64,000 nt of DNA from Raillietiella orientalis (lineage: Eukaryota), in NCBI GenBank assembly GCA_036172245.1, contig JAYWIR010000012.1, positions 310,001-374,000 of the forward strand, written 5' to 3'. The notes below the pieces were generated by a model that was not told the origin of the DNA, searched no databases, and was given only the letters and a program-made list of their open reading frames with translations. The translations under genes were made by a program, and so were the position numbers. How positions within the stretch are numbered: the first letter of the stretch is position 1; each line of letters starts with the position of its first letter. Positions 332-46,455 of this stretch are shown one piece after another.

Positions 332-456
332 TTAACTGTGCCAATTCAGAATGACCAGGGCAATACATAGTATGGTTGATAGTTCACAAACAGCAGCCTT
401 GCTTGAGTAAAAAGTGTAATGCTCACAAGCTGGAGGGCAAACAGGCACAAAGGTCT
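332..456 (-). CDS. Lac: Lachesin terminal exon (GPI-signal-like tail)
   Basis: ETFVPVCPPAC motif, hydrophobic tail, TAA at 334-332; acceptor TTGCAG. Confidence 0.88.
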
Positions 457-2432
457 CTGCAATACAAGAGTGTGTGAGTGTGAATTCATATTATGAAAGC
501 TAGCAAGCACATACCAAACAACTGCACCACAGCATGTGAAGATCCCAGTTTATTGGATGCTCGACATGTATAATTGCCGTATTGACGCTTTTCCACGGTG
601 ATAACTCGTAGAGTACTTGCAGTAAATTGGTCAGCAGTGGCAAAATTGGAGATTCTATACAGGCAAATAAGAAATGTTATATTCACTGTTCTACCTGTAA
701 TGCTGGTTGTTGCTCAATTGAAAACCTTCTTTATGCCATGAAATGGATGGGCTAGGATAAGCTTCCACATGACATACAAGGTCCATGTCATAGTCTGCAG
801 CTTGACCCACACGTGGATGGGGTGTAGTCACCACAGGGGCAAACTCAACTTCAAGTGCAACATTGCGACGAATACCCCTGCCCACTCCATTTTCTGCCAC
901 ACAGTAATATGTGCCACGATCCTCTTTTTTCACTGAATACACAGACAGAACAGAGCCCCGGTAAATGGCACCACCAGTAGGCAATACAGCTGTATTTTCT
1001 CTCCGCCAAGAGATGCGGGCTTCTGGGAATCCTGAAGCATAACACTCCAGCTTTACTGACTGACCCTCAGATACAATCACTGAGCGTGTTGAATTATCAG
1101 ATATAACAGGGGGACGGCGCACTCGAATGTATGTGTTGGCACTGATTCCATTTTGCAAAGAGAGGACAATGAGGCACTGATACACTCCTGCATCAGATTC
1201 TTGCAAGTCCTTGATCTAAAATCCATCAGTCAGAAGTCCTTGTGGACAGAAAATGACTCCATACCTGCAGCACATAGGAAGAAGATCCTGAGTCATAGCG
1301 TAAGGAGAATCGGTTATCCCTTATCAACAGTGAAGGACCTGATGAGATGGTAACGGCATCAGAACCACGGGAATTCTGCTGCTGATCCACTTTGACCCAA
1401 TACACAGGGTAATCTTGCACGTGTTGAGCAGAGCATTCTAGCTGCACTGTGGAGCCAATGTCCACTATTTTCTCAGGAGAGATGTAGGAGATGCTTGGAC
1501 TTCTTTGTGGTGAGGCTGGAAAGACACACTCTCCGAGGTTTTGGAAGAGAGCCACGGTGGGGGAGGTCACAAAAGTGATGCCAAAAGACACGAGGGATGC
1601 TCTGCTTGGCATGATCTGCCACTTGCGACGGATTGGAATCCTCTCCGGATTCCCTCAGGCAACCGGCCATGGTTCCCTCTCCGACTTGGCTGCACCAGAG
1701 CAACAGCAGCTTGTTTGCAAACGGTGGATGTATCCGAGATGCCTGCACGCAGCACGACCAAGTACGGCACGTTTTTGCTGAAGTAGGCTCTGGCTGCTGG
1801 GGTGACAACACCTTCCCTTGTGAGCTTCTACACGTCCTCGAGGCCAGATGCATGCGATGCAGAGAGAACGGAGCCGTGGTCACATATGTGCATGTATGTA
1901 CACGGCCGTATCTGCGCACGTGAGCAAGGACCGGATGCCTCCTAAGCGCGCCTTTGCCGCTCCCAGGGTCCGGTGGCCAAGTGGTTTCTGACGATCGTGA
2001 TGTTCAATCGTGCAGACGTGGTGCATCCATGGAGAAGGGTGTCCTTTGCTCTTTTGCCGTTGTGATGCATGCATCCGTGGTTTCGTCGACACGGCGGCGT
2101 CGGCTCGTGCAGCTCGCAGGCTTTGGCTAGACCGTGCGAGCTTGTCGTGTTTGGCGACACGAAAACACGCCCGGGAGGACGAGGACGCTTTTTGCTGCGT
2201 GCGACGCTGGCAAATCCCGTTCTCTCCCGAATCGAACGCCCAGCATATGTGTGCATTGCAGCCAGAAGACAGACACGCGGCGAAGGAGGCTTTCGGCCGA
2301 CACTGCATTCCGGTGCCCGCGGGGCAGAAGGGTGGAACGGAAAACACTGCACTTACCGAGGTGAACAAGGCTCAGGAGTACGAGGTACGCGACCCGCGTA
2401 CAGGAGGAACGCTTCGATGAAACCAACGGCAT
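332..2432 (-). CDS. Lac: Lachesin (three-Ig-domain, GPI-anchored cell adhesion protein), 370 aa; join(complement 2357-2432, 1265-1515, 695-1215, 515-654, 332-456)
   Basis: Spliced translation MPLVSSKRSSCTRVAYLVLLSLVHL-ASPQRSPSISYISPEKIVDIG...RRPPVISDNSTRSV...EFAPV...DMDLVCHVEAYP...ETFVPVCPPAC...LSTILCIALVILNWHS* is collinear with insect Lachesin as I recall it. All four introns are GT-AG with consistent phases (1,0,2,1); total 1113 nt. N-terminal signal peptide and hydrophobic C-terminal tail. Confidence 0.93.
515..654 (-). CDS. Lac: Lachesin exon 4 (Ig3)
   Basis: ISNFATADQFTASTLRVITVEKRQYGNYTCRASNKLG; acceptor GTATAG, donor GTATGT. Confidence 0.93.
695..1215 (-). CDS. Lac: Lachesin exon 3 (end of Ig1, Ig2, start of Ig3)
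   Basis: IKDLQESDAGVYQC...ECYASGFP...DRGTYYCVAENG...NNQHY; acceptor TTTTAG, donor GTAGAA. Confidence 0.94.
1265..1515 (-). CDS. Lac: Lachesin exon 2 (Ig domain 1)
   Basis: QRSPSISYIS...VQLECSAQ...RFSLRYD...YVLQ; acceptor TTTCCAG, donor GTATGG. Confidence 0.92.
2357..2432 (-). CDS. Lac: Lachesin coding exon 1 (signal peptide)
   Basis: ATG at 2432-2430, 25 codons plus 1 nt, then a perfect G|GTAAGT donor; phase matches the TTTCCAG| acceptor at 1516. Confidence 0.8.
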
Positions 2433-4561
2433 GCTGCTGCACTTCACTTACGCCTGCTCGGTGTGTCGTGCATTTCCACAGCCCAAATCTTCACGCATCG
2501 GCACAGCTTCCGCAGTGACTCTTCCTCCAAGAAAACAAACACAACACTCAGGTGTGTCCGCGGCAGCTCGCTGCGGCTCACCTTCGCCGCCGCTTGCGTG
2601 CAGCTGAACAACATGGTACCTGCCTGCCACTCGCGGGCTCCCCAATTCGTGATAGAATTCCATCCACACGGGTATGTTCGATGGCTTTGGTTGGCTCTTT
2701 TTGGGGAAGATTCAGCCTTCGCCCCTTATTTCGGGGATTCTCTTTCTTTCTTTTCCTTTTCTCCCGGCTGCAAACGTTTGATTTTAAATAATGTATGCAG
2801 TCGGTTCAAGGTTGGGAAAGTAGCAAGAATTTCGGTTTCAGTTTTATAGGTCTGCCAACTATGAAGCAATATCCGGATACAGCGACAAGAAACTTCCAGT
2901 GTCGTTAATCTTTGTGAGACGAAAGCGTAGGGATCGCTTGAGATCTGTATTTTAATCACTTTAAAATCACCTGTTGCTGAAGTCTGCAGACTAAAACCTG
3001 CTGTAATGAACTAGCAAGAAGTTCTGAAGAAAAAAAAAAATGCTTTTTTTTTTTTCTTCTTATATTTTGTTGCATCAGAGTCTAACGTGAGTGCATAGAT
3101 TTCTTCGTACACATTTCTGTTTTACTAATTGTACATCTAATGAAACATAAAGTGCTTGTGTTTCTTATCTGGATGTTTTTGTTTTGTTACTTCACTAATA
3201 TACCTTATTTGTATCTGAAATATGTACACAGCGTATCTTTCATATTTGCATATGAGAATTTAGATTTCATTCAAACATATACGAATAACTCTGATATGTT
3301 ATAAAAGTGTGTTGATATTAAAAGAGCGATGCTTCCTTCAAATGCTCCATTTTAGATTGGAAATAAAGACTACCCAACTTTCTGACTTAATTCTTTACAA
3401 GGGTGAAGTTCTTCAAAGAAAATAAATAAAAATAAAATGTACAATAAAGCAATTCCCAGATTACCACTCGGCAGACAGAATGAATTCTCACTTTATCAAC
3501 GACATTTTTCAAAAACATTATGAAATCTTCATAAGAGACATTCAAGTGTATCATAACGTGAACAGTAATTGACGGTATGTGATAAGGTTTTCTTCGAAAC
3601 ACCTGGAAAAAAAATATGTAGCAGGTAATGAAAATTTCTGCCCACTATTTCCCGTTTCAAATAATCAAGTACATTGAAAAATTGAAGTATATGGTAGGTT
3701 GCACGTACATCTTTCTAGAGACAGGAAGACTAGAGTGTACAATTATTCCATCTACACGCTGGCGATCGTTTATGTAATTTACAGAAATACGACGCAATTT
3801 GATGCAAACTTTTCGTTTCTTCGGCGGTACACATCTTCAAAAACGACAGTTTAACCTGTGTACGCAAAAAAAAATCAAATCTCCTTTCTGAATGGATTTG
3901 CTATTTACATATTTGGCTCGCGAATCCTTCTGCACCTGCAAATAGTTTATGAAATACTATAGCTTCTATTAGCTTCCTAATGTTACATAACGCCCTTACT
4001 CTCTCTCCGAGTTGCCATCATCATCTTGAGTCTCAGTCAGATGAAGATCATGCAAATTCACAAACATTCCCGAGTATCTCACCAAACGTTAGGTGCACTC
4101 AGCATTGGACCTACTTCCGCGAAAGTATATTTGAAGCTGTTCACATCACATTCTTTGTATTCAGCAGTTTTAAAGAGAGGATACGTTGATTTTGGTAACA
4201 TTTTCATATTTGGTAACATTGTAAAGCCTAAGGCACTTTTCATGCTGCACGTCTTTAGTTTGCTATGCTTTCTCATGAGGCGCTCTGTACCTAAATCCAT
4301 GAATCATCTCGTGAATGCTTCTCCGCCTGCCTGCATAGTCTGAAAGTGAGGCTACACGTATCCAAGTTGAGTGAATACCTGGAGGAACTGGTTAGTACAA
4401 AAACAGTTTTGCAAATCTCTGGAATCCGGGACATTTGTTCCTATCTAGGGCATCTAGATACAAACAGATGCCCTAGGGCACTGTTTCTAGTGCATATATG
4501 TAGTCATGAAGGATATTTCCAGTAATCCAGTGCTTAGAAATCGAAGATTTCGATTCGTTTT

Positions 4562-4593
4562 TGTGTGTGTGTGTGCGCGCGCGCGCGCGCGCG
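4562..4593. repeat. compound (TG)n(CG)n microsatellite
   Basis: tgtgtgtgtgtgtgcgcgcgcgcgcgcgcgcg. Confidence 0.9.
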
Positions 4594-4749
4594 AGTTTCT
4601 TCTTTTTTACATACGTCCAGCGGTTTTCATTTTGCATTGCCGTGAAGTCGTTGCCTGCCGAGCTGAGATTGGGTTAAGACGTGAAGTCCGAACACCAAAG
4701 AGCAGGCGTGTCTCATCTCAAATCAAAACGTGCACGATCTTGAGGATCT

Positions 4750-5450
4750 TTCCAGAATGTGACATGAATACGCTAATTCTTGTATAACCTTTTGTGCTGG
4801 TCCGTGAGAGTTGGCAGGCACTTTGCTAATTTTCAGGATGACTGATTTTGGAGACAGTCTTGGTTAGCTTGTTTTCATAATTAGAGTGCTATTTTACATT
4901 GGCTTCCAGGCAGTTCATGAGGTTTATCGATAGACAAACTGCTTGCCAGGAAAAAAAATCAAGCTTCTTGCACATGATGTATATTTGTGAGCATCCATCG
5001 AAAGGTACGATCACCTGGCGTACAAGGTATATTCGTATCAGCTCTTTTGTACATTCGAAATGCACGGTGAGGTTGCTTTCCGTGGAAGGACAAACTTCAT
5101 AGGAGGCTGAAGATTTTTAAAAAAATCGAATCAACTCGAGAAATCACGCGTTCCTTTGGGGAATATCAGAGCTCTTTTGAGGAAATTATGATTCATGAAG
5201 AGTGCGAATAATGGATGCTATCATTGAACAAATTCATTCATATTCATAAGGCTGACTGTACTTTAACCATACTTTAATCATTAGTGGATGTCAGGGAAAA
5301 TACATGGCTCATTCCAGGGCAATTTCATCTCTTTCAAACACCGAGAGTTCCCGATCAAGAGCAGATTCAGGAAGGGATACTTCTCTCTTTCGGGATTTTC
5401 ATTGAGATGCTGCAGATCTCCTGTCTTAGCTGATCAGACAAACTTGTGAT
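4750..5450 (-). mobile_element. possible Penelope-like RT relic
   Basis: Decayed translations QHLNENP-EREKYPFLNLLLI and SIIRTL resemble the PLE RT C-terminal motif (LN...E.E....LPFLD.L); many stops. Confidence 0.3.
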
Positions 5451-7149
5451 TCTTTGTCAAAGACAAACAGCCCCGCAGAAGCAGCCGAGCATCCTCGTAT
5501 TTTGAAATTTTGAATGTCATTTTAATTCTGAAAATTCAAAGAGTACATAAAAAATTGAATTTTCAGCACATGCTATTGCCTTTCAGAATCCTATCACTAT
5601 CAGAAAACGAATGCGTGTGTAATGAGCTCATTCCTCCAGAAGAGATTTTTGAGTTTAATCGGATGGGGGGGCGGATGTTTCGTCCTCTAGTTACTCTTTT
5701 CAGTCAACGGTTCCATTAGACTACAAAATAACAGTTGCCTTCAGTAAGAGCTATTAGAAGCACTTTGAAAAATCTCTATCCCCCTAACGCACAAGCGTAT
5801 ATCCTAATACACATCTACAAACAGATTACCTGCGCATGCAACCCATGAGGTTTCCAGAGTGATAAGCATTTTTCACATAATCGGGTTCCGAAAGAACATC
5901 GGTATTTGTTAGCGGGGAATCTCATTAAAAGAAAATGATTGCATGTCATGAAACAGAATGACGTTTGACCACTGAAACGCACCGGGTAACTGGCAAAACA
6001 AGCAGGCGTATAATCTCATTTTCATTAGGCAAATAAATTCCGTACTCCCTGAAATTTTAATAAATAATTGGATAAAAGGCAGATAGAGAAGTTGAAGTGC
6101 ATGTCAAGTCACCCTGAATTTTCAGCATAACGTGCGTAAAGACACAGAGCACTTTCGTGAAGGTGGCCACACAAACACCTCATAGCTGGAGTGCGGTAGA
6201 TGGTAATGAATGTCTTTTAAATTACTATAAGTGGATGAGTTAAACGAAACCGGTTGTGCCCAGAGAAGAAAACAGTGACTGGGAAATTTGCTTGAACAAA
6301 AAGACCGATTCTTTCCTTCTTACTGCGGTCGGAAGCTTCGCTTCATAAAAGTGCTTCCATGCAACGTCTTCTCTTAAATCTCACCGTAAAGCGATTGAAA
6401 TTTCGATAAATTCAGCGAATAGGCTGATTCGATGTCATCTGGGTAGGGGATAGGTCTTGGGATTTTGTGTTCTATTACCGGCTAAGAAATTTTTATGACG
6501 TCACGAATTCAGCGACCCTGAGGAACCCTGGAAGAGTCGAGGAGGAAGAGAAAATTCGCATGCACACGTTCTGTAAAAAGCTATGCAGTTTAGAAAACAG
6601 CAGCAACAACAAAAATAATCGTCCAAGTAAGAAGAATGCCTCTGGTGCTTTGCAGCTATATCAATATGACTAGAAGATACGCCCGAAGATATGAATACGC
6701 CTTCACTGTCCACACTAGGCTTTTCTCATTCGAGCAATTAAAGGAAACTGAGTCTCATAATGCCTGGTTACATGACAGGCAATTAAGCATTCAGTTAAGA
6801 GCCCCTAAGGAGGATGAAAGGATACATGATGTGTCGACGTAGCGTCAGATATCTCTTGCTAGCTAACTGAAATAAAAGCACACAACAAGACTTTGGGAAC
6901 ATCATGCTGATTTGAGATTCTCTTCAGTTAAACAGAAAACAAAATAAAGAGGAACAAAAATAGGAAATCCTTTATATGTATGTATATAAAGGATTTATCA
7001 GCAAATCGATATGCGTAGGAAACAGCCTTCTCTGCTGGCAAACGTAGTCAGCATAAGCGGCAAGTGACAAGAAGAATCACCGAAAAGACAACGAGCAACC
7101 CGAAAAGCAGATGATTTTCCATTTGCAGGCTGGAAGATACCATACCTCA

Positions 7150-8180
7150 TAGCGCGGTAGAAATCGGGACAGATTCCCTGTCCACTCGAGACCGTGTCAT
7201 CTTAGAAAGCAGTACACAACTGACGTTGCACGTTTCGTAATGGGTAGATGAAGCAGTGTGCAGCACACACAACACTTTCTCATAAGACCCTGCAATATTT
7301 TTCGAGTGACGCTACAAATACTCCATTTATCATCCTCCTGGCATCGTTCCGTGGGCTTTTAGTTTGTTAAATGGTCCTCTCAAATGGGCCGTGACTGTTC
7401 TCTCAGGAACCATTCGACTGGAACCCGAATCTTGCAAATTTTTTGCGGCATCACTTCCACTGCATGATCGCTAAACAAAAAACGAATTCTTCGTCATCGC
7501 AGTCATGTCACATGGTCTCAGTACTATACTACTGATGCCATGCTCGTTCCATACTCTGTGATGATTCCTGACAGAAACACTGTTTGTAGATCACAAAGAT
7601 GGGAAGGGAGGAGGGGGGAATGACGCGTCTCTGGTGAACTCACAAGTCGAGCAATAAGTCCTCGCAAATGTCGCGGCTGACTTTCTGCACATAACAACCA
7701 TCTATATAAGGACAGGTAAAATATCTGGAGAATTTATCAGAAGCACGCCTCCCCTGCGAGAAGAGGAGAAAACCAGAGCTCTTTTCTTGAGTCATATGGT
7801 TCAGGGACCCTACCTCCGATTCCTCATTCATACAACCCATCTCCTTATTGGTATCTTTGCAGTGTGTTCTAAAGTAACGTGAAAATGATGCCTTTTGTAT
7901 TTTGTACATGTGTCATCACCCTTCTGTGTCATCCTACATACATTCTGTACTCCAGGTAACGCACACGAAGAGACAATCGCAGAAGCTCAGCTGATCCTTG
8001 GTATACAAGGAATGGCACAAGAACTGAAGAACTTGGCCATCCTCTGATCTAGAGGCTTCTCAACAACTTGAGAGTGTCAATGAGTCCCTATTCTGGAATG
8101 TACTTCTACGCATGCTGGGTAGGAACTTGAGCCTCCTATTGCAATCAAACGTGAACTTCTCATCGCCCATGTATTTCACG
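7150..8180 (+). pseudogene. decayed caspase-like pseudogene
   Basis: EFFVIAVMSHG at 7484-7516 (caspase catalytic-His motif), followed in order across frameshifts by PPLR..KPELF (L.GKPKLF-like), TPG..RD...W, IQGMAQELKNLA, DL..LESVN and ..MYF (p10-like). The QACRG motif is not intact. Confidence 0.5.
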
Positions 8181-8577
8181 TACTTTCGTTACCGTGGTCT
8201 CATTTCTCTTAGCTGCTCTGTGGATTTTCCTTTCTTTCTTTTTCGCTTTTCAAAGCAGCAACCAATAATTCGTTTTCTGATAGCTCAGAGATCTCAATCT
8301 TGAAAGCCACTCTTCGCAGCTTCCATTGAGACGATGACGTTTTGCCTACAATTGGAATGCATCCATAAGTCCGATGCTTACTTGCTGCATCTGGTTCATC
8401 TTCCACTGTACAGGAAATTTGTTGTATTCTACAATTTTTGAGATGTTTTCTGATCGGAGATGCATCTTTCACTGCAATGTATTTTTTCCTTTCTTAAAAA
8501 TCATCCCTTAATCGCTTCACTATGTGCTAAACTGTTGAACTCTTCACTCACAATACTCCCATTCACTTGGTTATTAA

Positions 8578-8934
8578 CCTGTTAAGAGAGTTTGACGTGT
8601 ACACATGCGTTTTGTAAAGGCTCCAATGTGGAGCGTTTGACGAATATACACGCCGTGCGAAAAAGCAAAGATTACCCTTCGCCATGAAAATACGAAATTT
8701 TAGTGAAAAATTGACGCAATCTCATTTTAATGTGTACTTTACTTATATTCTGATCGGGACTGCAATGTGCAATGACCTTAATTTTTCATCAAAACATTTT
8801 TGAAGTGATGGCAACCAAACAAAAAATTCTTTCTTTTTACATACTGGGTTTTGTTTACAAACTTTGTACATACTGGGTTAATTGGAGATTTAATTGAGGA
8901 AAATAATAATTGGCAAAAAAGACAGAATATGGTC
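8578..8934 (+). mobile_element. piggyBac left end (truncated)
   Basis: TTAA (8574-8577) followed by TIR CCTGTTAAGAGAG; about 90% identical to 27538-27873. Confidence 0.85.
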
Positions 8935-9950
8935 CACTCCTCCTTTAACTTTTACTGGTCTTCCTTTGTGTTCCTTTGTGTAGAAAGCAAATACAACATA
9001 TGACTTTCTCAGCTGTCTTCTTTCATGCCTTCTTCTAAGAAGACGTTCTTGATAAGATTTTTTCTTCATAAAAATATCTTCATAACCAGAACTCATCTCG
9101 AACTCCCAGATAACCGTGCACAGTCTTTTTTTTTCTCCACAGAAGATTGTCTTCGTCTTCTGCATCCACGGTTGCGATTCTTTCTGATCAAAGCAATGGA
9201 TGCTGAGAGTCGAATGCTCCATTTCCCTTTTCCTTCGATGAGATGGACGTTTCTCAAGCAGATTCTTTGATGTGTGGATCTCCCCATCAACTTGGTCAGA
9301 CTAGCCAGTTCGGAAAAGATGTAGAAGGTTCACATTCCAGCCCCTGAAGAGGATTTCCTAGAAACTTAGTCTTCTTAGAGACATCGACCCCACTGTTCTG
9401 CTGCTGAATGTTTTCAACAGCGGATTCGCTTTTCGGCCTTTTGGATAAAATCAAAAGTGTTGAATGCTTTCAGATACGACAGCAGTTCTATTGGCTTCAT
9501 GTAGCTTTCCGTCGCATCTGCAGGGTTCTTATTTCTGCTTATCCACCACTTGAATATTCTCTTGGCTTCTGACTCGCATTGTTCAATCACCTCAGCATAC
9601 AAAGGCATCTCATGTGTCAAGGTTTTTGAGCAGGAGCCAACTCTCTGACATGATTTCGCGCTACTTCGTTCCGTACCTCGTCCTCTCGTCGCTTGCAACT
9701 ATCAACTGCATCGCAAGTCACCCACTGGCAACCAGTTTCCTGATCTACTGGGACGCGCTGCGGATTGCTCCGAGAGTTGCTTTTGCAGTCGTACTCCATT
9801 TATCCCTGATGTTTTGTCTGAGAGGATCACGAGCACTCCAGACTAAGCTAAGAAGCATGGTAAATGCGACGGGGATTACCAAACTTGCGATGGAGATTTC
9901 TAAGATCCAAGGTTTTCCCGTTCTGCTGAAAACTCACACGAGACCTTTGG
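8935..9950 (-). mobile_element. possible BEL/Pao gag relic
   Basis: LRNLHRKFGNPRRIYHA (DUF1759-like), P.ELLSYL, and a downstream KKRLC Cys/His remnant; decayed. Confidence 0.35.
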
Positions 9951-12900
9951 ATACTGCTGGCTGGACACAGGAAACGAGGAACACGGAAGAAGCGAAACTG
10001 AAATTTTGGGTAGATGTTTACCTTGGACCTGGACATCAACTCCAGAGAAAGGAAGAAAATACATTTTTTACACGTTCTGGTACTCTAATTCTCCAAGTAT
10101 CCTCCAAACTCTTGTCTATTATGCAGTATGTGTCATCAATCCACTTTCCGTCTGCACACAAAAGACGCCAATAGCCATTCCATAAGGATTGGTCAAATCG
10201 AGTGGGAAAAAGAGTTTCCCTGATGAAATTGGAGTCAGTCGGATGTGTGCCATTCGTTGCCACTGGAAACGGAACTCTGTTCGGACTCCTCCTGGAGAGG
10301 CACTACCGCTGAATGCAGGACAGAAATATGGTAGTGGAAAACCGCCAGCATGCAAAGAGAACAAGACGCGAAATGTGTTGTCTTCATTCTTTCAATGATG
10401 CACCAAAGGAGGCGCGAGCGGGGGGAAGATGTTATTCGGCACTAAGGTCTGCGTTGAAATTGCTGAGATATGTAGCGCTCCGAAATTCTAAGAGCAGCAT
10501 TTGCGGATTCGTTGCTGCATCCACTGTGCAAAAGGGATATGGGTACACAACATACCCAAACCACTTCACGCAAGTGAGGAAACACCTAACATCTTGAAGA
10601 AAAGTAGGGAAAGTTGAAAAGGCAACTGGGCATAGACGATTAGATCATGCCCTCTGCAAGAACAAGGATTTCTTTCTTTTTTTTTTCCAATCGTAGAAGA
10701 ACAGCGATCAGAGAAGAACACACTACCCGAAGAATCTTTTCACGTGTGTGCAATATAGAGGGATCGTCCTAGCAGAAAAGAGCACGTTTCACTTGGATCT
10801 GCACGCTATACGGAACAGCACGCATGGAAAGTATCATGTCGTGTAGTTTCCCTCTCGCAAGCTCGCAAGAAGGAAGAGTGCGTTTGGAGAACCCGCCCCC
10901 AAGCAGTGATCTCGGACCACAGGGAAACTTTGCAACTGCTACGGTGCTAAACATTTTCTGTCACGGTGAACGATAACGCGGAAGCCGAAACCGGAAGCAC
11001 CAGGGAATTCGAGCCTCTTTCTCATGCGGCGTCTCCCTCAGGTTCTCCAAGCACGTTGAGCTGGACAATTTTTTTTTTTTTTGATGTTCTAGAAATCCCA
11101 CGAGGATAACGTCATGAAAATAAAAGTGTTCTATCACAACTTGCTGTTTGGAACTGTCAGCCTCTTCAGGGATGCGAATGCATCACGATTGTACCTATGG
11201 ACTTTCATGCTTCTCTCACAGAACCTCTACTCCCTCGGGAAGGGGTGGGGGTGGGGGGGTGGAATGACTGATGGAAGCAATCGCAAAATTTAAAGCTGTT
11301 TACTGCCTTCGCTTCTTTTTCGAGACCATTCACACAATTTCAATACGGAAGCACCCAGCTGGAAACAGGGTAAAGTAGAAAAGAAATTCCTGGTTGTTTA
11401 TGCAAGACGCAATAAGAAACCGACGAATCTTCCTCCTCCAAAAGAGAGAGAGAAGGAAAAAAATCCAAAATGCCTTTAAAACTAAGCCAGAAGTGGTCGA
11501 TGGTCGCGATGCTTTCAACGAAATGCACGCCCAGGGTATTCTTGTTGCAAAAGCGTTGCTGCCAAAGTGACGGAGGAATTTTCTTCCCCCTACCGACTGC
11601 CTATGCAGACGACCATCTATAACACTAATGAACGACCAGAGGCCCTCCGCCCTGCTGGAATCGAGGCCTTCAGGACTTGCAGCCACGGGAGCCGCTTTGC
11701 CATCGAGGCGAGCCCGGTTGAGGCTCACGGCGAACGCACGGAAAAGAACCGATTTGCGTGGCAGGTGACCATCCCTTGGCGGAGAAGATTCCAACCAACC
11801 CCGTTCGCGTCCCAGCGGGACCGAATTTTCGGTGCGGTGCGAATCGGTGATTTTCAAAATGGCACGTGGTTCACGGACAAAAAAAAAAAAATCACGCATG
11901 CCTGTTCACGTGTGTGCGCGAATCCACATTCTCGCATAGGAAAGCACTGGCTCCAAAAAAAAAAAAAAAAGTTCTGCTTACGGCGGCCATCTTGGTTGAT
12001 TTCGCTTTTCTCAGACGTCCTTTTATCCACCTACTCCTCCTCGTACCGATTCGTAGGCTTGGGAGGGTCCTCACGTGGCGCACATGGAAGGATTGCGATT
12101 CTTGATCCCTTTTTTCTTCGCTGCCAACCTTCTGGAAGGGGAGCCATTAACAAGTATTAACAAGTAAACTTGAAATGCCCGTTGGCGGACGATGAGGGTC
12201 GATGAGGTAAGGAACGGAGGGACGCTCTCCGCAGGTGCCCTCATTGTTCCTCAGGCCTCCCCGAACAGGAACCTGGACGCGCGCACCCCCCGTTCGAGAG
12301 GCTGTGCTTCTCGCGCATGGAGCGGTTTGCTCCCTGGTGCTCATCCTAGTGCCAAGGAGCAAACACGTTAGTGTCTCCTTCCGGATCCTTGCTACCATGT
12401 CTTTCAGCTGCACGGCCGGGAATGCACACATGAAAACGCGCTGGTGCTCAGCAAGCGCGCCGCCGACCTGAGGCGACCCGTCAGCGCGGGACCCACTTTC
12501 TTGTGGGTCCCGCGCTGACCCACGAGAAAGTCCAGTTTCGCCTGCTCGCGCGATCCTTCTGCCATTTTCTTCTACGGGTGCGCGTTGATCAGAGGCAGGG
12601 GGAGGACACCAGGTCGGTTTTCCGGAAGTGGGAGGAAGAGAGAGTGCATGCGAGCAGTCAACTGATCAGCACCTTCCTTATCATCGACGACCATCGCAGC
12701 TGAACCAAGTCCGGAGATTCAGCTGCTTTTTCTTGGATGCGAGGGATAAAGGAAACTCGATCGCAGCAAGGCTCTTGATGGAAGGATTTTGTTTTTTTTT
12801 TCTTCCACTCTGCCGATACGGTACTTGGGAGATGCAAAATACGGCGCAAAGCTATGATGAATACAGACCGGTGCGATCCGAACGTCATAAATATCGTGGT

Positions 12901-13259
12901 GGTTGCGTTTCAGCTCTCCCGACGTCTTGGCGAAATCCCGATCCATATTTTAAGAAAATGCCAGTTTCTTAGAAGCATGGATTAAATGGAGTGATTTCAG
13001 TCCTTGTGGTAAATTCTCCCGAGGAGGGTTGGATGCAGTTACACAGAAGAAACTTATGATTGAACCGTTGTTAATTCTCAGGTGCGAAAGAACACTGAAT
13101 GAACCCAAAGGTATGGAAGAAATGGTTGACCAAGGTCTTTTCTCCTTGATTGGGATGCTTCCAGCCTCACTGCAGAAAGCAATACCTAAATCTCATATGA
13201 AACGGTTTGGTGGAACGGAGTAACCGCATGGAAGCTCTTATTCTTCTGGATAAGAAGAA

Positions 13260-14260
13260 TATCAAAATCGCGTATGTAGAAACCTCGAAAGATCATTAAG
13301 ATCATTAAAATATATATTAAATATACAAACAAATATATATTAAATGTGCTTATTATATGTATTAGTAAATGCATTCCTATATAGACTGAGACAAAAATTT
13401 GTTTTAATATAGATATTTATTAATGTTTAACAAACGTATTAACATTAATAGTATTTAACACATGTATTTACTGGTACTTAGTAACAATATTATTAATATA
13501 ATTAGTAATATGTGTTAATATACTTGTTAATATATAAAACATAAATGTATACGTTTATTATATATATGTGAATAATAAATGTGTACTAAACCAATGTATA
13601 ATTATCGAATTACAAAAGAAACCGCGGTGACAAAAATAGCGGAAAAAAATGAAAAGGCAAAAAAGTTTAAGAAACCCCTCAAAAAAATTTGGTATTACGT
13701 TTTCCCATCATCTGTAACACTGAATAAGTGAAAATTTCTCAGGAAATGACGAATTCCATTTTCAGGATTTTGATCGCTTAATGAATATATATTTTTATAA
13801 TTCAATATCTACATATTCATTTCATATTTATTTATAATATGTATAAATGCATATTGACATATATAATAAACATATATATTTAGTTTTTATGATCTTCCCA
13901 ATATATATTAATAATATATATTATTACGTATCATTAATTCAATTAATATATATGTGTGTTAAAATAAGTTTGCACACGAGTCTATATACATACACACATA
14001 TATATATATGAATAATAGGAATATATATTTATTTTTTATAATCCCAAAGATATTAATCTATTATCAATTTATATACAATAAACATATCTATCTTGATATC
14101 TACAATAAATACACACACCTATTCATAATTTTAGTGATATATTAATTTATAATCTGAATGATAATAATTTATATTTGAATATATATATCTCAATATGCAT
14201 AATAAGCATATTCATTTCTTTTTTATGAACTTTCAAGATTTCGATGTTCGGGATTTTGGT
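13260..14260. mobile_element. AT-rich foldback/MULE-like non-autonomous element, copy 1
   Basis: AAAATCCCGAA-type termini in inverted orientation; shares a ~170-bp core (13630-13800) with copies 2 and 3; AT-rich inverted arms. Confidence 0.7.
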
Positions 14261-14269
14261 CGGCACTGA

Positions 14270-14760
14270 CAGTCCAAGATAAAACGACGTCGACGCCATG
14301 ATGATTTGGATGGTGAAACTGTGATCAGTAGTGAATGTTCCGTAAGACAACAAAAGGTTAGGCTTGACTGGAAGGAAATTCTTTGGCGCAGGCCGGAATT
14401 TACCGAGCTTCTGAATACAATGATGCCAAACAGATGCATCATCTTACAATTCCGGCAGGCAATCGTACTCAACTAGTGTTCATTCGGATCTGCTCCCTAC
14501 TGGTGTGTTCCGTCACCGGGAAACCATCTTGCCCATCTTTGTATGTATGATTCTTCTTGTGCATCTTTTGCAGGCTGTACTGACTCTCTCCTGGAGCTCA
14601 CCTGGAGCTTTCAAAGTCCGACACCGGAATACCCACCTGGCAGGGATACGTCCGATGTTGATGTTTCTCGTAGATGAAATAAAATAGCAGGAGACACAAG
14701 GAAGGAACTCCCTTCGATTGGATACGGAACGGAGCATTGCCGTGTTTATGTCTCTCAGGA
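14270..14760 (-). mobile_element. LINE apurinic-endonuclease relic
   Basis: NSG..RI.F and TDH (SDH-like) motifs; decayed. Confidence 0.4.
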
Positions 14761-14899
14761 GAGTTTCGCTAGATGACCCGAGAAATCAGTCGGTCCGAAC
14801 CAGATTGGAGGAAGAAAATCATGGCAGCAAAAATCCACACACCGCCACTGGAAGACCTGACCAACAGGTGAAACGAACTCCACTCTGCTAGGGGATCAA

Positions 14900-16738
14900 G
14901 GAACTTTATCGAAGATGAAACATTTCTGGTTGCAAGAATCGCTTGGCTCAGTTGCTTTTCCAATGTTTTGTGCAACCATGTTAAACAGATTCTGCAAGAA
15001 TGAAATTTCTTTTGTACATAATCTAAGAAAATGGAAGAAATCGTAGGTAGCAAAGCCTCAGCACGGCGAACCAAAAATCGCAACAGAGGTTGCGGCGGTC
15101 AGCCCCTGTGGTTCTGTCATCCAAGCACAAGCTCTCCGCGAAGAGCTCTCACACCGTAGAACCAAACCGATCGAGGTGACCAACTCTCCTCCTACGAATG
15201 CCAGGCAACGACCTACCACTAGAGCACTGCAACAGAAGACTGCGAGTGCTCTAAGCCCGTTCCACCTTGGCAGGTTCGTCCTGCCGGAGCGGGCCTCCAT
15301 TTGGAACACCTTCGTTGCCCCCCTCTTACGCCCCCTGCTTTTTGTTTGCCCGCCCCCCTACTCGGCCAAGCTCCAGGCGAGATGCCTGTTGAGAAACGCT
15401 TTGTGAGGACCCACGAGGTTCAGGATCCGCTTGAAAGACTTGGAGGCTCCACGTCGGGATGCCGGTTTAGGTATCCTGAAGCTGGAGAGAATCGAACTGC
15501 AGGTGCGGTTTCGAATGTTGGCCCTGTGCGCCAACCTTTGGTCCACTCCGTGGTGTGCTCCCGCGCGCCTGCTACTGCGGCGCCGCACCGGCAGCGATGG
15601 CCTTCTGTCGCTGCGGCCGCACACGGAGCGCCCCACGAGAAGCTTCGGTTTCCCCTTGAAACCGCTATACCGGCTCCTGGAAGCCCACACTTGGATCTTC
15701 TGCCGCCCAACGAACTTTAACGCCTGTTGGCAGGAACCGTTGTATGCCTGGGCAAGGCAACAGGATGTGTCCCGTTTGGAACTCCGTTGCGTGAACCTTT
15801 CTCCGTACTGTAGTACTATGGAGGAGGTCAGGAACAACCAGGAGAAGTGGACTCGCCTGGCCGTCACGTTCCTCGCCGAAGCGCTGTCAGGGCAAGTGAT
15901 GACAGCTGCCTACCGGTGAGTTGGGAGGTCGCCTGCACCATTGCAGGAGCAATCCGACCCATGGGCGGCTGGAGGACTAGCGAGCTGGCAGACTCCTTCG
16001 GTGGAGCGAACTTTTGAGTGTGCCCCCCGAAGAATTTGTGGTCCTTCCCTCTTGTTTGAACACTTCTGTGTTCCCCCTTTCTTGGAAATAGGAAGTCATC
16101 ATGCTGGTGCATTGGAGTTTTCACTCCAACCAGCGGACGAACCGTGTTTCCGGGGGAGTTGACTCCCCGAACTGTAAGCGGTGCGGGGAAGTGGAAACGC
16201 TCCCGCGCTTGCTCCTGGACTGCGGTGTCCTCCAAGGACTGTGACGGAGGCTGGCCTCAGCTCTCCTGATCCAGAGGGACACCGCAAGGGATTTGATGCG
16301 CCGCTTCACTCCAGGCGGCCTATTGTTAGGTGCGGTGGTCGCAACGGTCTGTTGCACCCGCGCCATTGACAAGGTCCACCGAGAGCGGGAGACGCAGGCG
16401 ATTCGTCGACAGGCCACCGGAATAGCCGACGATAACATGACGTCGGTTGCCGAGTGGGCCTATCTTCCAGAGGACGTTAGGAGCGAGATCACCGGCATCC
16501 ATAGCCGGTTCTGAAGGAAAGGAACGGCTAAACCAAAGACCCCTGTCCCCTACCCTCCCCAAATCTTTATTTCTATTTTTTATATGTGTATTTGTGGTCC
16601 CCTCCCTCGCGTTCCGGACTTTCCGTTTACCGACCTGCGTGTCGGGGAACCCTCCCTTCGTTTTTCTGTGTTCTTTGTCCGGGAACTCTGTTCCCGGATA
16701 GTTTAGCAATAAACGCCTCGGCGCACCCGGGTGGAAAA
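14900..16738 (+). mobile_element. L1/Tx1-like LINE family A, 3' portion
   Basis: ASIWNTFVAP, GLGIL, a CKRCGEVETLPRLLLDC CCHC-type finger and a 3' UTR ending AATAAACG-hairpin-GGGTG-A run; frameshifted. Confidence 0.75.
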
Positions 16739-16843
16739 AGAGCACTGCAATGTGACCGGATGGCAGCGAATTCTATTCTAAATCAAGCGAAACGGTCCAA
16801 ATGCTCGCCACGAGCCCTGAGTTCGCATCCTAGTACCATCAAC

Positions 16844-18078
16844 AAGCCATCGAACATACCCGTGTGGATGGAATTCTATCACGAATTGGGGAGCCCGCGA
16901 GTGGCAGGCAGGTACCATGTTGTTCAGCTGCACGCAAGCGGCGGCGAAGGTGAGCCGCAGCGAGCTGCCGCGGACACACCTGAGTGTTGTGTTTGTTTTC
17001 TTGGAGGAAGAGTCACTGCGGAAGCTGTGCCGATGCGTGAAGATTTGGGCTGTGGAAATGCACGACACACCGAGCAGGCGTAAGTGAAGTGCAGCAGCAT
17101 GCCGTTGGTTTCATCGAAGCGTTCCTCCTGTACGCGGGTCGCGTACCTCGTACTCCTGAGCCTTGTTCACCTCGGTAAGTGCAGTGTTTTCCGTTCCACC
17201 CTTCTGCCCCGCGGGCACCGGAATGCAGTGTCGGCCGAAAGCCTCCTTCGCCGCGTGTCTGTCTTCTGGCTGCAATGCACACATATGCTGGGCGTTCGAT
17301 TCGGGAGAGAACGGGATTTGCCAGCGTCGCACGCAGCAAAAAGCGTCCTCGTCCTCCCGGGCGTGTTTTCGTGTCGCCAAACACGACAAGCTCGCACGGT
17401 CTAGCCAAAGCCTGCGAGCTGCACGAGCCGACGCCGCCGTGTCGACGAAACCACGGATGCATGCATCACAACGGCAAAAGAGCAAAGGACACCCTTCTCC
17501 ATGGATGCACCACGTCTGCACGATTGAACATCACGATCGTCAGAAACCACTTGGCCACCGGACCCTGGGAGCGGCAAAGGCGCGCTTAGGAGGCATCCGG
17601 TCCTTGCTCACGTGCGCAGATACGGCCGTGTACATACATGCACATATGTGACCACGGCTCCGTTCTCTCTGCATCGCATGCATCTGGCCTCGAGGACGTG
17701 TAGAAGCTCACAAGGGAAGGTGTTGTCACCCCAGCAGCCAGAGCCTACTTCAGCAAAAACGTGCCGTACTTGGTCGTGCTGCGTGCAGGCATCTCGGATA
17801 CATCCACCGTTTGCAAACAAGCTGCTGTTGCTCTGGTGCAGCCAAGTCGGAGAGGGAACCATGGCCGGTTGCCTGAGGGAATCCGGAGATGATTCCAATC
17901 CGTCGCAAGTGGCAGATCATGCCAAGCAGAGCATCCCTCGTGTCTTTTGGCATCACTTTTGTGACCTCCCCCACCGTGGCTCTCTTCCAAAACCTCGGAG
18001 AGTGTGTCTTTCCAGCTTCGCCACAAAGAAGTCCAAGCATCTCCTACATCTCTCCGAAGAAAATAGTGGATATCGGCT
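16844..18078 (+). pseudogene. inverted partial duplicate of the Lachesin 5' end (255 bp upstream, exon 1, intron 1, first 63 bp of exon 2)
   Basis: Reverse complement of 1453-2687. One mismatch found over 16844-18016 and six in 18017-18078; truncated by a SINE-like repeat. Confidence 0.95.
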
Positions 18079-18480
18079 TCTCTCTCCCTCGTCGTTTCCT
18101 CCTCATCTCTTCCTTCCTCCCTTCTTTCTCTTTGTTCTCATTCTCTCCGGAGGGGCGACCCCCTGAGAGGGGTATCAACCAGCTCTACGGCACGGCTCCA
18201 TTCTCACAGCCGGAAGGGAATCCTGAAGGACTGTTTAATTTCTGGAAGGACCCCAGGGGATCACTTTCAATCTCAGTCGGTCAGCAGGGACATCCGATTT
18301 CTGGCTTCTACCAGTGCCACAACCGAACCATTACAAGGATGGTCAGGTCATTTTGCAGGGAGAATTCGAAACCCATGATGCACCCATTTCTCAGACAGCG
18401 ATCCTCTGAGTGGAGGGGGACTCGATCCAGCAAGGCGTGCTACCACGCGCCGAGACCGAAACAGCCTCCAACGCGGGGTC
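18079..18480 (-). mobile_element. tRNA-headed SINE-like repeat copy
   Basis: Homologous along its length to 58488-59050 and 27139-27537. Confidence 0.75.
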
Positions 18481-18646
18481 AGTGAGCATCAAAGCATCTA
18501 CGATCTGTTTTTATACGAGAAGTACATATTTGCAATGTATTTTCGATGTATTTGATGTATTTTATTGCTCGGCCATTGAATGCATTGAATTTCAAAGATG
18601 TTCTGGCATGTCTTTTTGAATACCCACAGTGGTCATCTTTGATTGT

Positions 18647-19600
18647 CATCCAGGTGCCCCTGGACGTTTATTTCATATATAAAAAAATAAACAATTACGA
18701 TGTCCGTTTTACCGGGAGCTGCCGGGTTACCAGTATGCAGACTGGTGAGGTCCACCACGGCAGCAAGAGCGGTGGGGAGCAAACAAAAGGAGAAAAAAAG
18801 AAACAAAAATAAATAAATAAATTTGGGGGGGAGGTGCGAAAAGGGGTCATATCCTGCTGGGGGAGGTCCTCTGCATTCTTCCAAGAATTCCGGCAAGCTC
18901 TTGCTGTACATATTTCTTCAGGTGGGGCCATCTCGTCGCCATCCTCAGGAAGCGTACGGCAAAGTGGATGTGGCACCCCTTTCGCTCGGTCCTCCTCTTG
19001 CGTGGCTTCAGGAAGCTACAATCCCGCGTAGACAGCAGAGTGCTGCTAGCGGGACCGCCGGCTGAAGAGGTCATACAACGTCCCTAAAGTTGCCTCAGGG
19101 GATTCCTAGGGTCGCGGTCAAGCGCTCCCAGAGGAGCCAGAGGGCAACAGAATTCACTAGCAGGTGCGAGAAGGATTCGCTCTCTCCACACCAGGAACAG
19201 CTTGGGTCCACACATACCCCGTGTCCAGTGATGCCGGAGGGTGCTGCATGGGAGGCCGAAGGCAATCTTTGAGAGCTTCAATCTTTATTGCACCCTCTGA
19301 GCTGTGGTCTCCATGAAAGCAAGAAACGAGAGGAAGCGGAAGTGCTCTTGCTGCCGTAAGTGACGGTCTACGTTATATCTATGCTCCATGGCAACGGCGT
19401 GTTGTAAACAGACCCAATTTATTTTGCTTCCCAAACCAAATCCGGTTTGCTCCATGGACGCGCGGCTACCTCTGCATCTCACCGCGAAATGGGACGAGTG
19501 GCCTTTCGTAGCTCATAGAGCCTACTCGAAGCTACTGAACAACTCTAGGGGCCTGATGTCTTCCTTGATAGGTCCACTGGAGAGTGGGTGAACATAGACC
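18647..19600 (-). mobile_element. LINE family A 3' portion
   Basis: LRMATRWPHL...ELAGILGRM C-terminus, 3' UTR hairpin at 18729-18746, AATAAACG terminal motif. Confidence 0.75.
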
Positions 19601-20670
19601 CCACTTGGAAAGGGAAACAGGCACTGATGAGGCTTCACTAATTCAAGATCGTGTCTAGGAGCAAGGAGGTCTGGGATGGAGAACTGGTCCTGGTGATACC
19701 CTACTTTGTTCCCGTTCCCAGGAAGACTTCAATCTGGATACATCAGAGGCGAAGATTGAGAATGGAGCATTGAGAACAGTTCGCCACCAGTGGGAACCCC
19801 CACCAAGCACGACTGTTTCGCCTCAGGCTACAAATGAAAGAGAGATTCAGTTATAGAACACGGGAGCTTTGGAAACAGCTGCCGCAACAGGCGTGGCTGC
19901 TGATGAACAAAGTCAACATCAAGGAAGAAACTCTGAAGAAACATCAAGATGACGACGCCCTCGATGCAGTCTCGAGACGCTACGGACTTGCGCACGAAAA
20001 CGTGCAGGTGGTGGGGACTGCAATCTGGAGGAGTGACCTTTCCCTGGACACCCAGGACAGCCTCCAGTTGTTCTATCAGAGGGATCCTAAGTGGTTCCAG
20101 ACTACGACACTGGAGCGGGAACATCCAGGACGGATTCTGCAAGGCGCGTAGAGCGGAAGAAACGCAGCTCCACTTGTTCATTCACGCTGCGTCCTGATTG
20201 GCAGACGGCGAAGGAGGTGACGGGTCTGCAGAGAAGCGAGAAGAGGAAATTCTGGAGGGCTTGTTTCAGAGGTACGGGAACGTTGCCCTGTACAACTCGA
20301 TGGTTCGAACCACTCTTGACCTCTTCAATCACAGCAACTGTGATCAGAAGGGCAAAGATGCACACATCTCGAAGAGGAGCCTTGGCATTGGATATCCTAA
20401 AAGGGCTGATGATGAAAGGGATTGAGAACAGGAATGAGGAAGGTCCAGCCTGGAAGTATCGCTACATCCTCAGTAAGATTGACGACTACGCAATGGAACA
20501 GCCTGCTCACCCTGAACACAAACTTCAAAAGTGAGGAAGTGGAAGTGAAGTGAAAGTGACGTGAAACGAACAGTGCAAGACCAGTGCAGTTGTTGTGGTA
20601 AAACATGGAAAGGACATAAAAGACTGATAGTTGTGTGTTAGAAGTTAAAAGTTTGTTTTAATAAATTCAT
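19600..20670 (+). mobile_element. second LINE family (B) C-terminal fragment
   Basis: VIRRAKM...ILKGL...W.Y.YIL..I shared with 33497-33685 (-); ends near an AATAAA at about 20660. Confidence 0.5.
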
Positions 20671-20749
20671 CACACTGCTTGTCGGACCTGGGGACAATCC
20701 AGTTCTCTTGAAAATTCTTCCAAGTCGGACCCTCTTCAGTTCTCCGCGA

Positions 20750-21550
20750 ATGAATGAAAAAACTTCATTTTAGGCTGAAGGCAGAGCAAAAGCCATTTTT
20801 TTCGTCGGATTTGGAAACGCTCCGTGGCGGATGCTGGCGTAGACATGGTGGCATGTCCCCTGCGTCATTGGTCTTCGCTTTGCACATCAACCCGATCGCT
20901 TTATGAGTCACTTCCTGGTAGGCAGTCCTTATCCCGAATGAAATCATGCGTGGATAGGAGCACATATGGCCATTGTACGTGGCGTGGGCTGTTGCAGGTT
21001 CCACCAAGGTTTCCATGTCGACTGCCAATAGGTGAGCCATGGGGCGCTCTTGGCAGCTCGAGGAAAACTGGGGCGCTTCGCAGACCGCCACTCGAATCGC
21101 GCAGTGGGCGTTTTGGGGTTTTCAGCGAAGTGGCTGGGTCCGCCTGTCCTCGTGCTCTTCCCAAAGGAGGGCTTCAGAATCGGGATGCTGGAACAGGATT
21201 GCCAAGTTCCACCTTGGAATCACCGTCGCCTTTGCGGATGATTTTCCGGGAAGCGATTGCTGGAGACCAGCACGTCTCACACACCCTTTGCCGTATATGC
21301 GGGTACCTCCCGTGGACCACCCTCGCTCGCGAGGTGTGCCGTGGGAACCGAGCGTCAGAAATGTCTTTTCAGAATCCACGCTTCAGACTCGTCTCTTGGA
21401 ATAGTGCAGAGAGTCCCAGGGGACGCAGGAACGTGCTGAGAATCGTTCGCGAAGGGGTGAGGGGAAACAGCCACACTGCTTGGCTGACCAAGCATCAGCC
21501 GAAGACTCACCACCGAACGAGAAGTGTCTGCTTCTGGATGCTAAAGAGGT
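20750..21550 (-). mobile_element. LINE reverse-transcriptase core relic
   Basis: LRPLGL (RPISL-like) and CQERPMAHLLAVDMETL (RQG.PLS.LL...E.L-like). Confidence 0.5.
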
Positions 21551-21703
21551 GTTCTTAGCGCCTAATGAGATCTAGTCATTCATGTGTATGTTAAATAGGT
21601 ATCTATCGGGCTAGTGGGTCGCTGGGATTAGATTAGGCTCAATGGATTAGGTAGAGTAGGTAGGTTAAGTCGGATTTTTTTTTTTAAGACCGCAGCCACA
21701 CGT

Positions 21704-22200
21704 ACGCGTTGGCGGTCGTGCGACGGGTGCGGTCTCCGCGAGTGGCATCGAGAGTCGCGGGTTCAGATCCCTCCCTGGGAAGAATCGACACCGAGAGAAA
21801 TGGGTTTCAAATCTTCCCCTCAAGATGACGCCGGTTGACCTCATGGCTTCGGGAGCGCACACAGGTGGAATTCGGAAGCCCGTTGAATGGTCGGGATTGG
21901 AAGCTGACCCACCAGAGTCCTTCCAGAGATCAAAGACCTTCCGGCTGTGAAAATGGAACCGTTTCTTCCCCTCAAGGGGTGATCCTCTCGTATCATGGAG
22001 CTGGTTGATACCCCACTCCGGGAGTAGCCTCTTCAGGGTGCAAGAAGCGCGCTGCTCCCTTCGGGGCATCACACTCTCTCTTCAGAGGAGCAAACCAAGG
22101 AGTCGTTTCCTTGAGCATTCCCTCCGAAGAAGAAATTCCAGGAGCATATCCTTTCCAGGTTCTCTTCGGAGGTGACCATGCCACTCAGGATAACCTACTC
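21704..22200 (+). mobile_element. tRNA-headed SINE-like repeat copy
   Basis: CGCGTTGGCGGTCGTG head, GGGTTCAGATCCC B-box-like motif, AGCTGGTTGATACCCC body. Confidence 0.75.
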
Positions 22201-22551
22201 GAGTCTGTGCTCTTGGTCTTTTGCAGAATTTCCAACCATTCCTTCGGGACTCGACAGAAAGCTTTCTTAACCATCTAGATCAACTCGCTCTGCTGAAGGA
22301 TTTCGAAGAGTTGCTCCATTCTGGCATCTTATCGACTCATGCTCTCCGGAGCCGAAAGACCACGCGGACGAAACCGCAGTCCACGGGGAGGGAAAATGGC
22401 GGAGGCGTCCCTCGCTCATTATTCTCGCTTGTTGCTGGGCACAGCGGCTCTCCGTCTGTTTCTCTGGGATCAGCGGATCGGACATGCCAGGATGAGAAAG
22501 CCGGAAGGAAGAGCGGACCGCCGAGTGCGAGGAAACTTTCTGGTGCCGCTA

Positions 22552-22700
22552 CCGGTGAGGACAGCCATGGACAGCAGTTAGGCCGGTAAGAACAGCCATG
22601 GACACCATCCAGGCCAATGATGACTTCCGTGGACAGCAGCCAGACCGGAGAGGACAACCATGGACAACATCCAGACCGGTAAGAACAGCCATGGACAGCC
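22552..22700. repeat. 31-bp minisatellite, about 5 units
   Basis: Units CCGGTRAGRACAGCCATGGACANCANCCAGR start at 22552, 22583, 22614, 22645 and 22676. Confidence 0.9.
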
Positions 22701-32214: not shown

Positions 32215-32392
32215 CGGCACCCGTGTTGGCGGTCGTGCGGCTGCGGCCTAGGCGTGCGGCACCAGGCAGGCATCGTGGGTTCGAATCCCACCCGGGGGAA
32301 GTATCGACTCCGACAAATGGGTGGATACGTCGTGAGTTTCGAGTCCCCACGCAGGACGACGCTGGTTGGCCTCTTCAGGTTTGCACTGGTTG
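32215..32392 (+). mobile_element. SINE-like repeat, 5' part (best tRNA-like head)
   Basis: TGGCGGTCGTGCGG A-box-like motif and a perfect T-arm/B-box GTGGGTTCGAATCCCAC. Confidence 0.8.
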
Positions 32393-33105: not shown

Positions 33106-33399
33106 TTGCGGAAATCCCCTTAAAGCCCTTTTCGGGGTGGTTGGGTTTTGACTGTCGGCCAGGGACAGTGCGAAACAGGATGATGATGTGATCGGGGATG
33201 GGATGATGGAAATTCCCTTGGGATACTTCTGTTTCGCTGCTTTCCTTCTCAAGGAGAGCTAAGGAACAGTTCGCAGTCTTGGGAGGAAGCTCACGAAGCT
33301 CTTCAACCCTTCGAGTGCTATGGGCACATCCGTGCGTCTGGAAAATATGCTCGCGACAAAAGTTACCACTATCCATGTTTTTCCCAGTCCGATGGGGGT

Positions 33400-46283: not shown

Positions 46284-46455
46284 ACCAGTGCAAACCTGAA
46301 GAGGCCAACCAGCGTCGTCCTGCGTGGGGACTCGAAACTCACGACGTATCCACCCATTTGTCGGAGTCGATACTTCCCCCGGGTGGGATTCGAACCCACG
46401 ATGCCTGCCTGGTGCCACGCGCGGGGAGACTGCAGCAGCTACACAGCCTGCCTTC
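46284..46455 (-). mobile_element. SINE-like repeat, 5' part
   Basis: GGGATTCGAACCCAC B-box complement. Confidence 0.8.

Follow-up and report, generated by a model that had tools for sequence, protein, structure and literature searches.

An inverted partial duplicate of the Lachesin 5′ end with two strata of different age, and its tentative origin by one-sided copy-repair

The human gamma-globin genes are paralogs that have been partly homogenised by gene conversion, with a sharp boundary to the homogenised part. These genes, and PMS2/PMS2CL in the portion of its description drawn on here, have a mosaic identity profile in which non-coding parts fall within the near-identical block. The same kind of profile is found at the locus described here, which carries two inverted arms from the 5′ end of a Lachesin gene, arm A belonging to the intact gene and arm B to a relic copy. 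Both human cases keep older homology on both sides of the block, whereas our locus is without it on one side.

In the model of Goulding et al. 1996 for the expansion of the plastid inverted repeat (IR), as outlined in the sections of the source cited here (PMC8592052), a break in one inverted repeat is repaired off the other copy, and the copying crosses the repeat junction into single-copy DNA. Formerly single-copy DNA then becomes an identical part of the IR with a sharp new end, and in both respects the model resembles our locus. Our locus differs in that it is nuclear, lies in an arthropod and has arms 14 kb apart, that its event is inferred rather than observed, that its old repeat, unlike an identical IR, is an exon fragment that has diverged, and that its far end needs end joining. 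The aborted synthesis-dependent strand annealing (SDSA) of Adams et al. 2003, in the excerpted account (PMC3962482), likewise combines a one-sided invasion, about 1 kb of templated synthesis and a non-homologous junction, and its product has one homologous and one abrupt end, as at our locus. The events in that account were experimental, at P-element gaps and with identical templates, while ours would be a natural germline event primed from homology of about 90% identity. Inversions 2h and 2q of Drosophila mojavensis, according to the part of the report used here (PMC3355041), carry about 1–7 kb of single-copy DNA duplicated in inverted orientation around a segment, and one of the two copies may be a partial gene, again as at our locus; such duplicates are born identical over their full length, whereas the outer 63 bases of our repeat are far older.

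Mosaic paralogs, the expansion of inverted repeats and aborted SDSA have each been described before, and our locus is a tidy new example that brings no new principle; the literature search was aimed at analogues, and it does not establish that similar cases are absent from print. We propose, tentatively and at a confidence just short of even, that this two-age mosaic inverted partial duplicate of the Lachesin 5′ end arose by recent one-sided copy-repair.

The intact gene and the inverted arms

The window, by which we mean the whole 64-kb stretch of DNA analysed, contains no N, and the features on which the argument turns are as follows.

332..2432, minus strand: coding region of the intact Lachesin gene (gene A), five exons, from an exon model built on the sequence
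1453..2687, minus strand: arm A, with the upstream region, exon 1, intron 1 and the first 63 bases of exon 2, from the repeat search and base comparison
2688..16843, no strand: spacer of 14156 bp between the arms, AT-rich beside arm A and GC-rich beside arm B
16328..16645, no strand: dispersed repeat on the left flank of arm B, with 3 other copies at 61–66% identity and contigs of the public run X1 about 90% alike
16844..17098, plus strand: arm B upstream region, 255 bases before the start codon, 100% identical to arm A
17099..17174, plus strand: arm B exon 1, a start codon and signal-peptide-like 25 codons plus 1 base, identical to arm A
17175..18015, plus strand: arm B intron 1, 841 bp, GT..AG intact, with one mismatch (17890, T against G in arm A)
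18016..18078, plus strand: arm B exon 2 fragment, 21 codons, the old stratum, with 6 differences from arm A
18079..18477, no strand: dispersed repeat in place of the remaining exon 2 of arm B, from repeat matches in the window

Lachesin is an arthropod GPI-linked septate-junction protein with three Ig domains. Gene A is intact: its exons (2432-2357, 1515-1265, 1215-695, 654-515 and 456-332, stop included) are separated by introns of 841, 49, 40 and 58 bp, all GT..AG, and encode a product of 370 aa, every exon of which was recovered when the product was compared with the window by tblastn. In Pfam scans of single exons, exon 3 matched Ig_3 with 97 bits (cut-off 30, two stretches) and I-set with 81.9 bits, while exon 2 alone reached 26.1 bits for Ig_3, under the cut-off of 30; the third Ig domain straddles exons 3 and 4. 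The exon 3 peptide (173 aa) matched 405 proteins at E ≤ 0.001 among 914 candidates from a large protein collection, and the best 120 of these 405 have 65–73% identity, mostly at 99–100% query cover, with three covering 80–91%. Many of the matches listed are named “lachesin” or “septate junction protein lachesin” and come from insects, an ostracod, brine shrimp and a springtail; the closest one listed is 73% identical, and the collection contains no close relative. In an alignment with 10 orthologs, the beginning of exon 2 falls on their mature N-terminus. On inspection the translation is hydrophobic both at its N-terminal end, in exon 1, and at its C-terminus, and the conserved C-terminal cysteine-rich motif was aligned with the orthologs by eye. 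Judged by these sequence matches, gene A is evidently the Lachesin ortholog of a pancrustacean. Three of its introns (457-514, 655-694 and 1216-1264) are tiny (58, 40 and 49 bp) with a GC content of 0.30–0.41, in striking contrast to intron 1 (1516-2356), which has 841 bp, a GC content of 0.58 and undepleted CpG.

Comparison of the window with itself returned 67 repeat pairs, the strongest of which is formed by the two arms, 1453-2687 and 16844-18078, each of 1235 nt and spaced by 14156 nt; among these pairs no further match to either arm was found. In a repeat search of the first 25 kb, the same two arms came out as the one long inverted pair. Base by base, 16844-18078 and the reverse complement of 1453-2687 differ at 7 positions (17890 in the intron, and 18017, 18020, 18056, 18057, 18071 and 18074), and outside the arms, on both sides, the match level is that of random sequence. 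A first-pass annotation, made from the sequence alone, had placed the inverted repeats 14 kb apart and named pairwise alignment as a check; the alignment returned the same seven mismatches at the positions it had listed. Its further details were reproduced as well, namely a single mismatch (17890) ahead of the exon 2 divergence, an 841-bp intron inside the repeat (17175-18015, GT..AG), a divergence that starts at the second base of exon 2 (the exon begins at 18016 and the first difference is at 18017), and 6 mismatches in the following 63 bp, five of them synonymous in the codon comparison. Inverted copies of non-repetitive DNA flank one segment here, as they do in inversion-associated duplications. 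The long frames of the spacer held no Pfam domain, and the spacer held no second exon-1-like sequence. Reading by eye, one can pick out in both arms (16917-17085) an ATG with its own open frame before the Lachesin start codon, and the leader may contain a short GT..AG interval of some 55 bp.

Arm B is a 5′ gene fragment in repeat-rich DNA and not a gene, its coding sequence being incomplete: after 21 codons of exon 2 it is truncated at the dispersed repeat, and tblastn of the gene A product (E ≤ 10) found no Lachesin exon in the 64-kb window besides those of gene A and arm B. The right-flank repeat has 8 other partial matches in the window at 61–78% identity, starting at 18084, and a contig of 153 bases from the public run lies on 18079-18231 with zero differences, starting at 18079. 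The search for public runs turned up this single DNA run and no RNA run; it contained 0.06 of the sampled words and is uninformative on the arms or their expression; over 15500-19500 its contigs cover the repeat flanks only, mostly 88–95% alike, and leave 16840-18045 uncovered. The flanking repeat had been considered as a SINE with a tRNA-like head, a label that was dropped in favour of “dispersed repeat” after Rfam returned 0 matches in 15000-23000 (E ≤ 1). Likewise, Pfam returned 0 families at E ≤ 0.01 for 26 open frames of 136–318 codons between 8890 and 60093 of the window (15 between 8.9 and 30.6 kb, and 11 between 31 and 60 kb), and the repeat field therefore seems to be made of non-coding or heavily decayed elements.

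If spliced, the arm B frame runs on through 135 codons of the dispersed repeat until it meets a stop whose last base is 18485, and the hypothetical product of 181 aa (17099-17174 joined to 18016-18485) carries the Lachesin signal-peptide exon. With its start codon, splice sites and 181-codon frame, arm B could encode a predicted secreted chimeric peptide. It is also liable to be called, in annotation, the start of a second “lachesin-like” gene, which calls for caution. Among the observations made on the surrounding repeats, 18138-18194 faces another member of the flanking repeat family at 21989-22045, 3.8 kb apart (57 nt, 74% complementary), with a fuller match between 18192-18376 and 21800-21962; just right of this second copy, at 22551-22700, lie tandem-like short units in which GGCTGTCCATGG-type words abound.

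Two strata of very different age

The repeat consists of two strata of very different age. Mismatches number 1 in the 1172 bases before exon 2 and 6 in the 63 bases of exon 2 (Fisher p = 9e-8), which corresponds to a raw divergence of 0.085% (0.00085) for the block against 9.5% for the exon 2 fragment. The contrast persists when the two canonical CpG transitions are left out (p = 3e-5) and when only the three non-CpG events are kept (p = 5e-4). By the Nei-Gojobori method the exon 2 fragment has pS = 0.34 on 14.7 sites, a dS of about 0.45 and dN = 0.021. The first-pass annotation had argued that a single recent duplication cannot explain the pattern, a conclusion that the 0.085% and 9.5% divergences uphold. 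Since one recent duplication is insufficient, the natural reading is that the upstream region, exon 1 and intron 1 were copied anew in some non-reciprocal way. We rejected a difference in mutation rate, that is, decay of methylated CpG in exon 2, as the sole cause of the two strata, given that the contrast stays significant without the CpG sites; CpG decay alone would also need a change at all three CpGs. A retro-copy of a spliced mRNA is ruled out by the presence of the intron.

Five of the six exon 2 differences are third-position synonymous changes, the sixth (18057) turning a Glu of arm A into a Lys of arm B. If both copies drifted neutrally, the probability of at least 5 of 6 synonymous changes is 0.004–0.011, the range depending on the transition bias. 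If arm A was constrained and arm B dead from birth, the expected synonymous share is 0.378 and the probability 0.032, or 0.071 with 18056/18057 counted as one event. The earlier description of these changes as mostly synonymous therefore holds as a count (5/6), while as evidence it is weaker than it looks, at 0.032–0.071 if only arm B drifted. The synonymous excess weakly favours an old functional paralog in arm B, and a once-functional gene is only weakly required there because an always-dead fragment still gives p values of 0.03–0.07.

The polarity of the exon 2 differences is mixed between the arms. Glu occupies the Glu/Lys site (18057) in 8 of 10 orthologs, Leu and Lys in one each, and arm A therefore looks ancestral at this site. 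The 63-base fragment contains three CpGs in arm B and none in arm A, a difference compatible with the decay of CpGs within the gene A body, which is CpG-poor (observed/expected 0.26–0.46). The longest perfect run within the fragment is 35 bases, and an exact scan of JGI metagenome contigs with this core, common to both exon 2 variants, returned 0 matches.

Ends of the young block and the proposed repair

Identity between the arms is perfect over 16844-17889, with zero mismatches, and it ends abruptly. Beyond 16844/2687 the local alignment score was 13 over 1500 bases (shuffle mean 14.2, maximum 19) and 10.5 over the nearest 300 bases (shuffle mean 10.5), and downstream of the arms it was 15.5 (shuffle mean 17.3), so that no homology was detected in these stretches. 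The inner end at 16844/2687 is a blunt non-homologous junction, that is, a breakpoint and not a fading tract. The opposite end of the block, where young sequence gives way to old, falls between 18015 and 18017, within 2 bp of the splice acceptor. Older homology flanks the block on the exon 2 side only, whereas classical conversion has it on both sides. Searches at the DNA and the protein level for a displaced older exon 1 or upstream region found none in the spacer or the rest of the window, the scores being no better than those of shuffles.

Under one-sided copy-repair, the old layer would be the short exon 2 stretch common to the intact gene (arm A) and the relic copy (arm B), and the young layer would be the 1172 bases of upstream region, exon 1 and intron 1, laid down recently. 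A broken end with exon 2 homology would have invaded the other copy, its non-matching tail would have been trimmed to the edge of the homology, which is the exon/intron boundary, and DNA synthesis would then have run about 1.2 kb outward via intron 1, exon 1 and the upstream region. The new strand would finally have been sealed without homology to the other broken end at 16844/2687, a pathway that would amount to aborted SDSA plus end joining. On this view a larger part of the gene would formerly have been present in arm B. Trimming of a non-matching tail at the edge of homology is a feature of yeast recombination. With synthesis primed by homology, a switch at the acceptor is expected, because at a dS of 0.45 only the exon would still be alignable. 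One-sided copying fits better than symmetric conversion between fully homologous old duplicates, since one end of the block lies in old exon homology and the other is abrupt and non-homologous. The surviving old homology, 63 bases at about 90% identity, is short for strand invasion, and the model must therefore assume that arm B carried more of exon 2 at the time of the event. That no trace of a displaced older exon 1 or intron was found in the spacer or elsewhere in the window is, at best, neutral towards the one-sided model. The setting is supportive, in that arm B is a relic in repeat-rich DNA with repeats abutting both sides. Work on Drosophila, in the excerpted sections of one report (PMC3962482), indicates that diverged sequences are poor partners for conversion, that gap repair takes the form of aborted SDSA with end joining as often as that of complete SDSA, and that at least 0.9 kb was synthesised in 80% of the aborted events.

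The first-pass annotation had read the locus as an old duplicate gene recently homogenised with its parent by gene conversion. Its two strata and the recent re-copying of the block stand, while two of its components are not sustained. Arm B is no old duplicate gene in the present sequence, but a fragment in which 21 codons of exon 2 give way to a dispersed repeat. For ordinary conversion, older homology is required on either side of the tract, whereas identity here is perfect to the last base at 16844/2687 and nothing is alignable beyond it; it is a poor fit also because an old intron at a dS of about 0.45 would hardly be a substrate. The closest version of that reading, in which old, fully homologous inverted duplicates underwent arm-to-arm conversion that homogenised the repeat from its inner edge to the acceptor and spared exon 2, appears unlikely to us, though it deserves real weight. 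It fits the two-age pattern and the mosaic of identity (0.085% against 9.5%), inverted duplicates kept alike by conversion are common, as judged from the parts of the sources on hsp70/Hsp68 (PMC3355041) and PMS2/PMS2CL drawn on here, and a tract of about 1.2 kb lies within the Drosophila range given in the cited sections of PMC3962482. On the other hand, the tract would have had to extend inward to the final base of the old homology and leave zero diverged remnant there, and to stop within 2 bp of the acceptor by chance; the probability that a random tract end falls within 5 bp of the acceptor is about 0.009, an argument made post hoc, after the data had been seen. Old paralogs are, moreover, normally homogenised in their conserved exons and not in their non-coding parts.

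We regard as improbable a single recent inverted duplication of all 1235 bases, for instance as a by-product of a 14-kb inversion by staggered breaks, after which the start of exon 2 was overwritten from a third Lachesin copy or altered by a mutation cluster from repair synthesis at the breakpoint. Inversion-associated inverted duplications have exactly this geometry, and partial gene copies are possible among them according to the excerpted report (PMC3355041); both arm ends are abrupt, and exon-limited conversion from a third paralog would also put the boundary at the acceptor. However, a third Lachesin copy is absent from the 64-kb window, and no close second copy occurs among the named lachesin matches, the best match in the collection being 73% identical. 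A mutation cluster is unlikely to be synonymous at 5 of 6 changes (p 0.004–0.011), and its six changes would have to account for three CpGs gained by arm B or three lost from arm A. Two strata are found where such a duplication should have a uniform age. An assembly artefact, in which mis-assembly, cross-polishing or a haplotype switch made the near-identity, the pairing of the flanks or the inversion, seems quite improbable. The sole public run found contains 6% of the sampled words, and neither copy is independently confirmed by it. Against an artefact, the flanks on both sides of each arm are unique and different, 64 kb of repeat-rich DNA without N suggests a long-read assembly by which a 1.2-kb repeat would be easily spanned, and polishing should be incapable of making 99.9% identity out of 10–40% divergence or of stopping at a splice site. 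One-sided copy-repair remains our preferred reading, on the tentative terms given above.

Direction of copying, consequences and regional composition

At locus A the block has a GC content of 0.57–0.58 and a CpG observed/expected ratio of about 1.0, and it stands out as a GC- and CpG-rich island; upstream of it the GC content drops to 0.41 and then to 0.28. At locus B the block blends into its flanks (GC 0.49–0.69). The composition hints at copying from B to A. We did not accept it as proof of direction, given that the same composition would result from an unmethylated promoter island or from an earlier recombinational flip of the spacer, which swaps the inner flanks. Copying from the relic to the living gene, by which the proximal promoter, signal-peptide exon and first intron of Lachesin would have been replaced by those of a dead paralog, is in our judgement a doubtful and rather unlikely outcome, and it would explain why the block is a GC/CpG-rich island in the AT-rich, CpG-poor locus of gene A.

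If the proposed event is real, non-allelic repair in an animal germline has left an unusually clean natural footprint at this locus, in which one-sided invasion, tail trimming and end joining can be read from a single sequence, and a dead gene fragment may keep, or donate, a live promoter and first exon. Identical inverted arms of 1.2 kb would, if true, make the 14-kb upstream segment invertible, and the distal DNA that lies upstream of Lachesin could differ among individuals. The value of the locus rises if the essential Lachesin was the recipient of the promoter and exon 1 of the relic, or if the spacer is invertible.

The window also shows a step in composition, with a GC content of 0.40–0.49 in the first 16 kb and mostly 0.51–0.61 in the rest, apart from AT-rich pockets at 26–28 kb (0.41) and 40–42 kb (0.32); the AT-rich part harbours the Lachesin gene, and arm B lies where the GC-rich, repeat-dense part begins. 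Within this GC-rich repeat field sits a second young inverted repeat, 32252-33112 and 45561-46422, of 862 bp and 98.8% identity, with its arms about 12.4 kb apart, together with older inverted pairs at 42484-43100/47517-48116 (88%) and 35338-35607/36131-36397 (94%).
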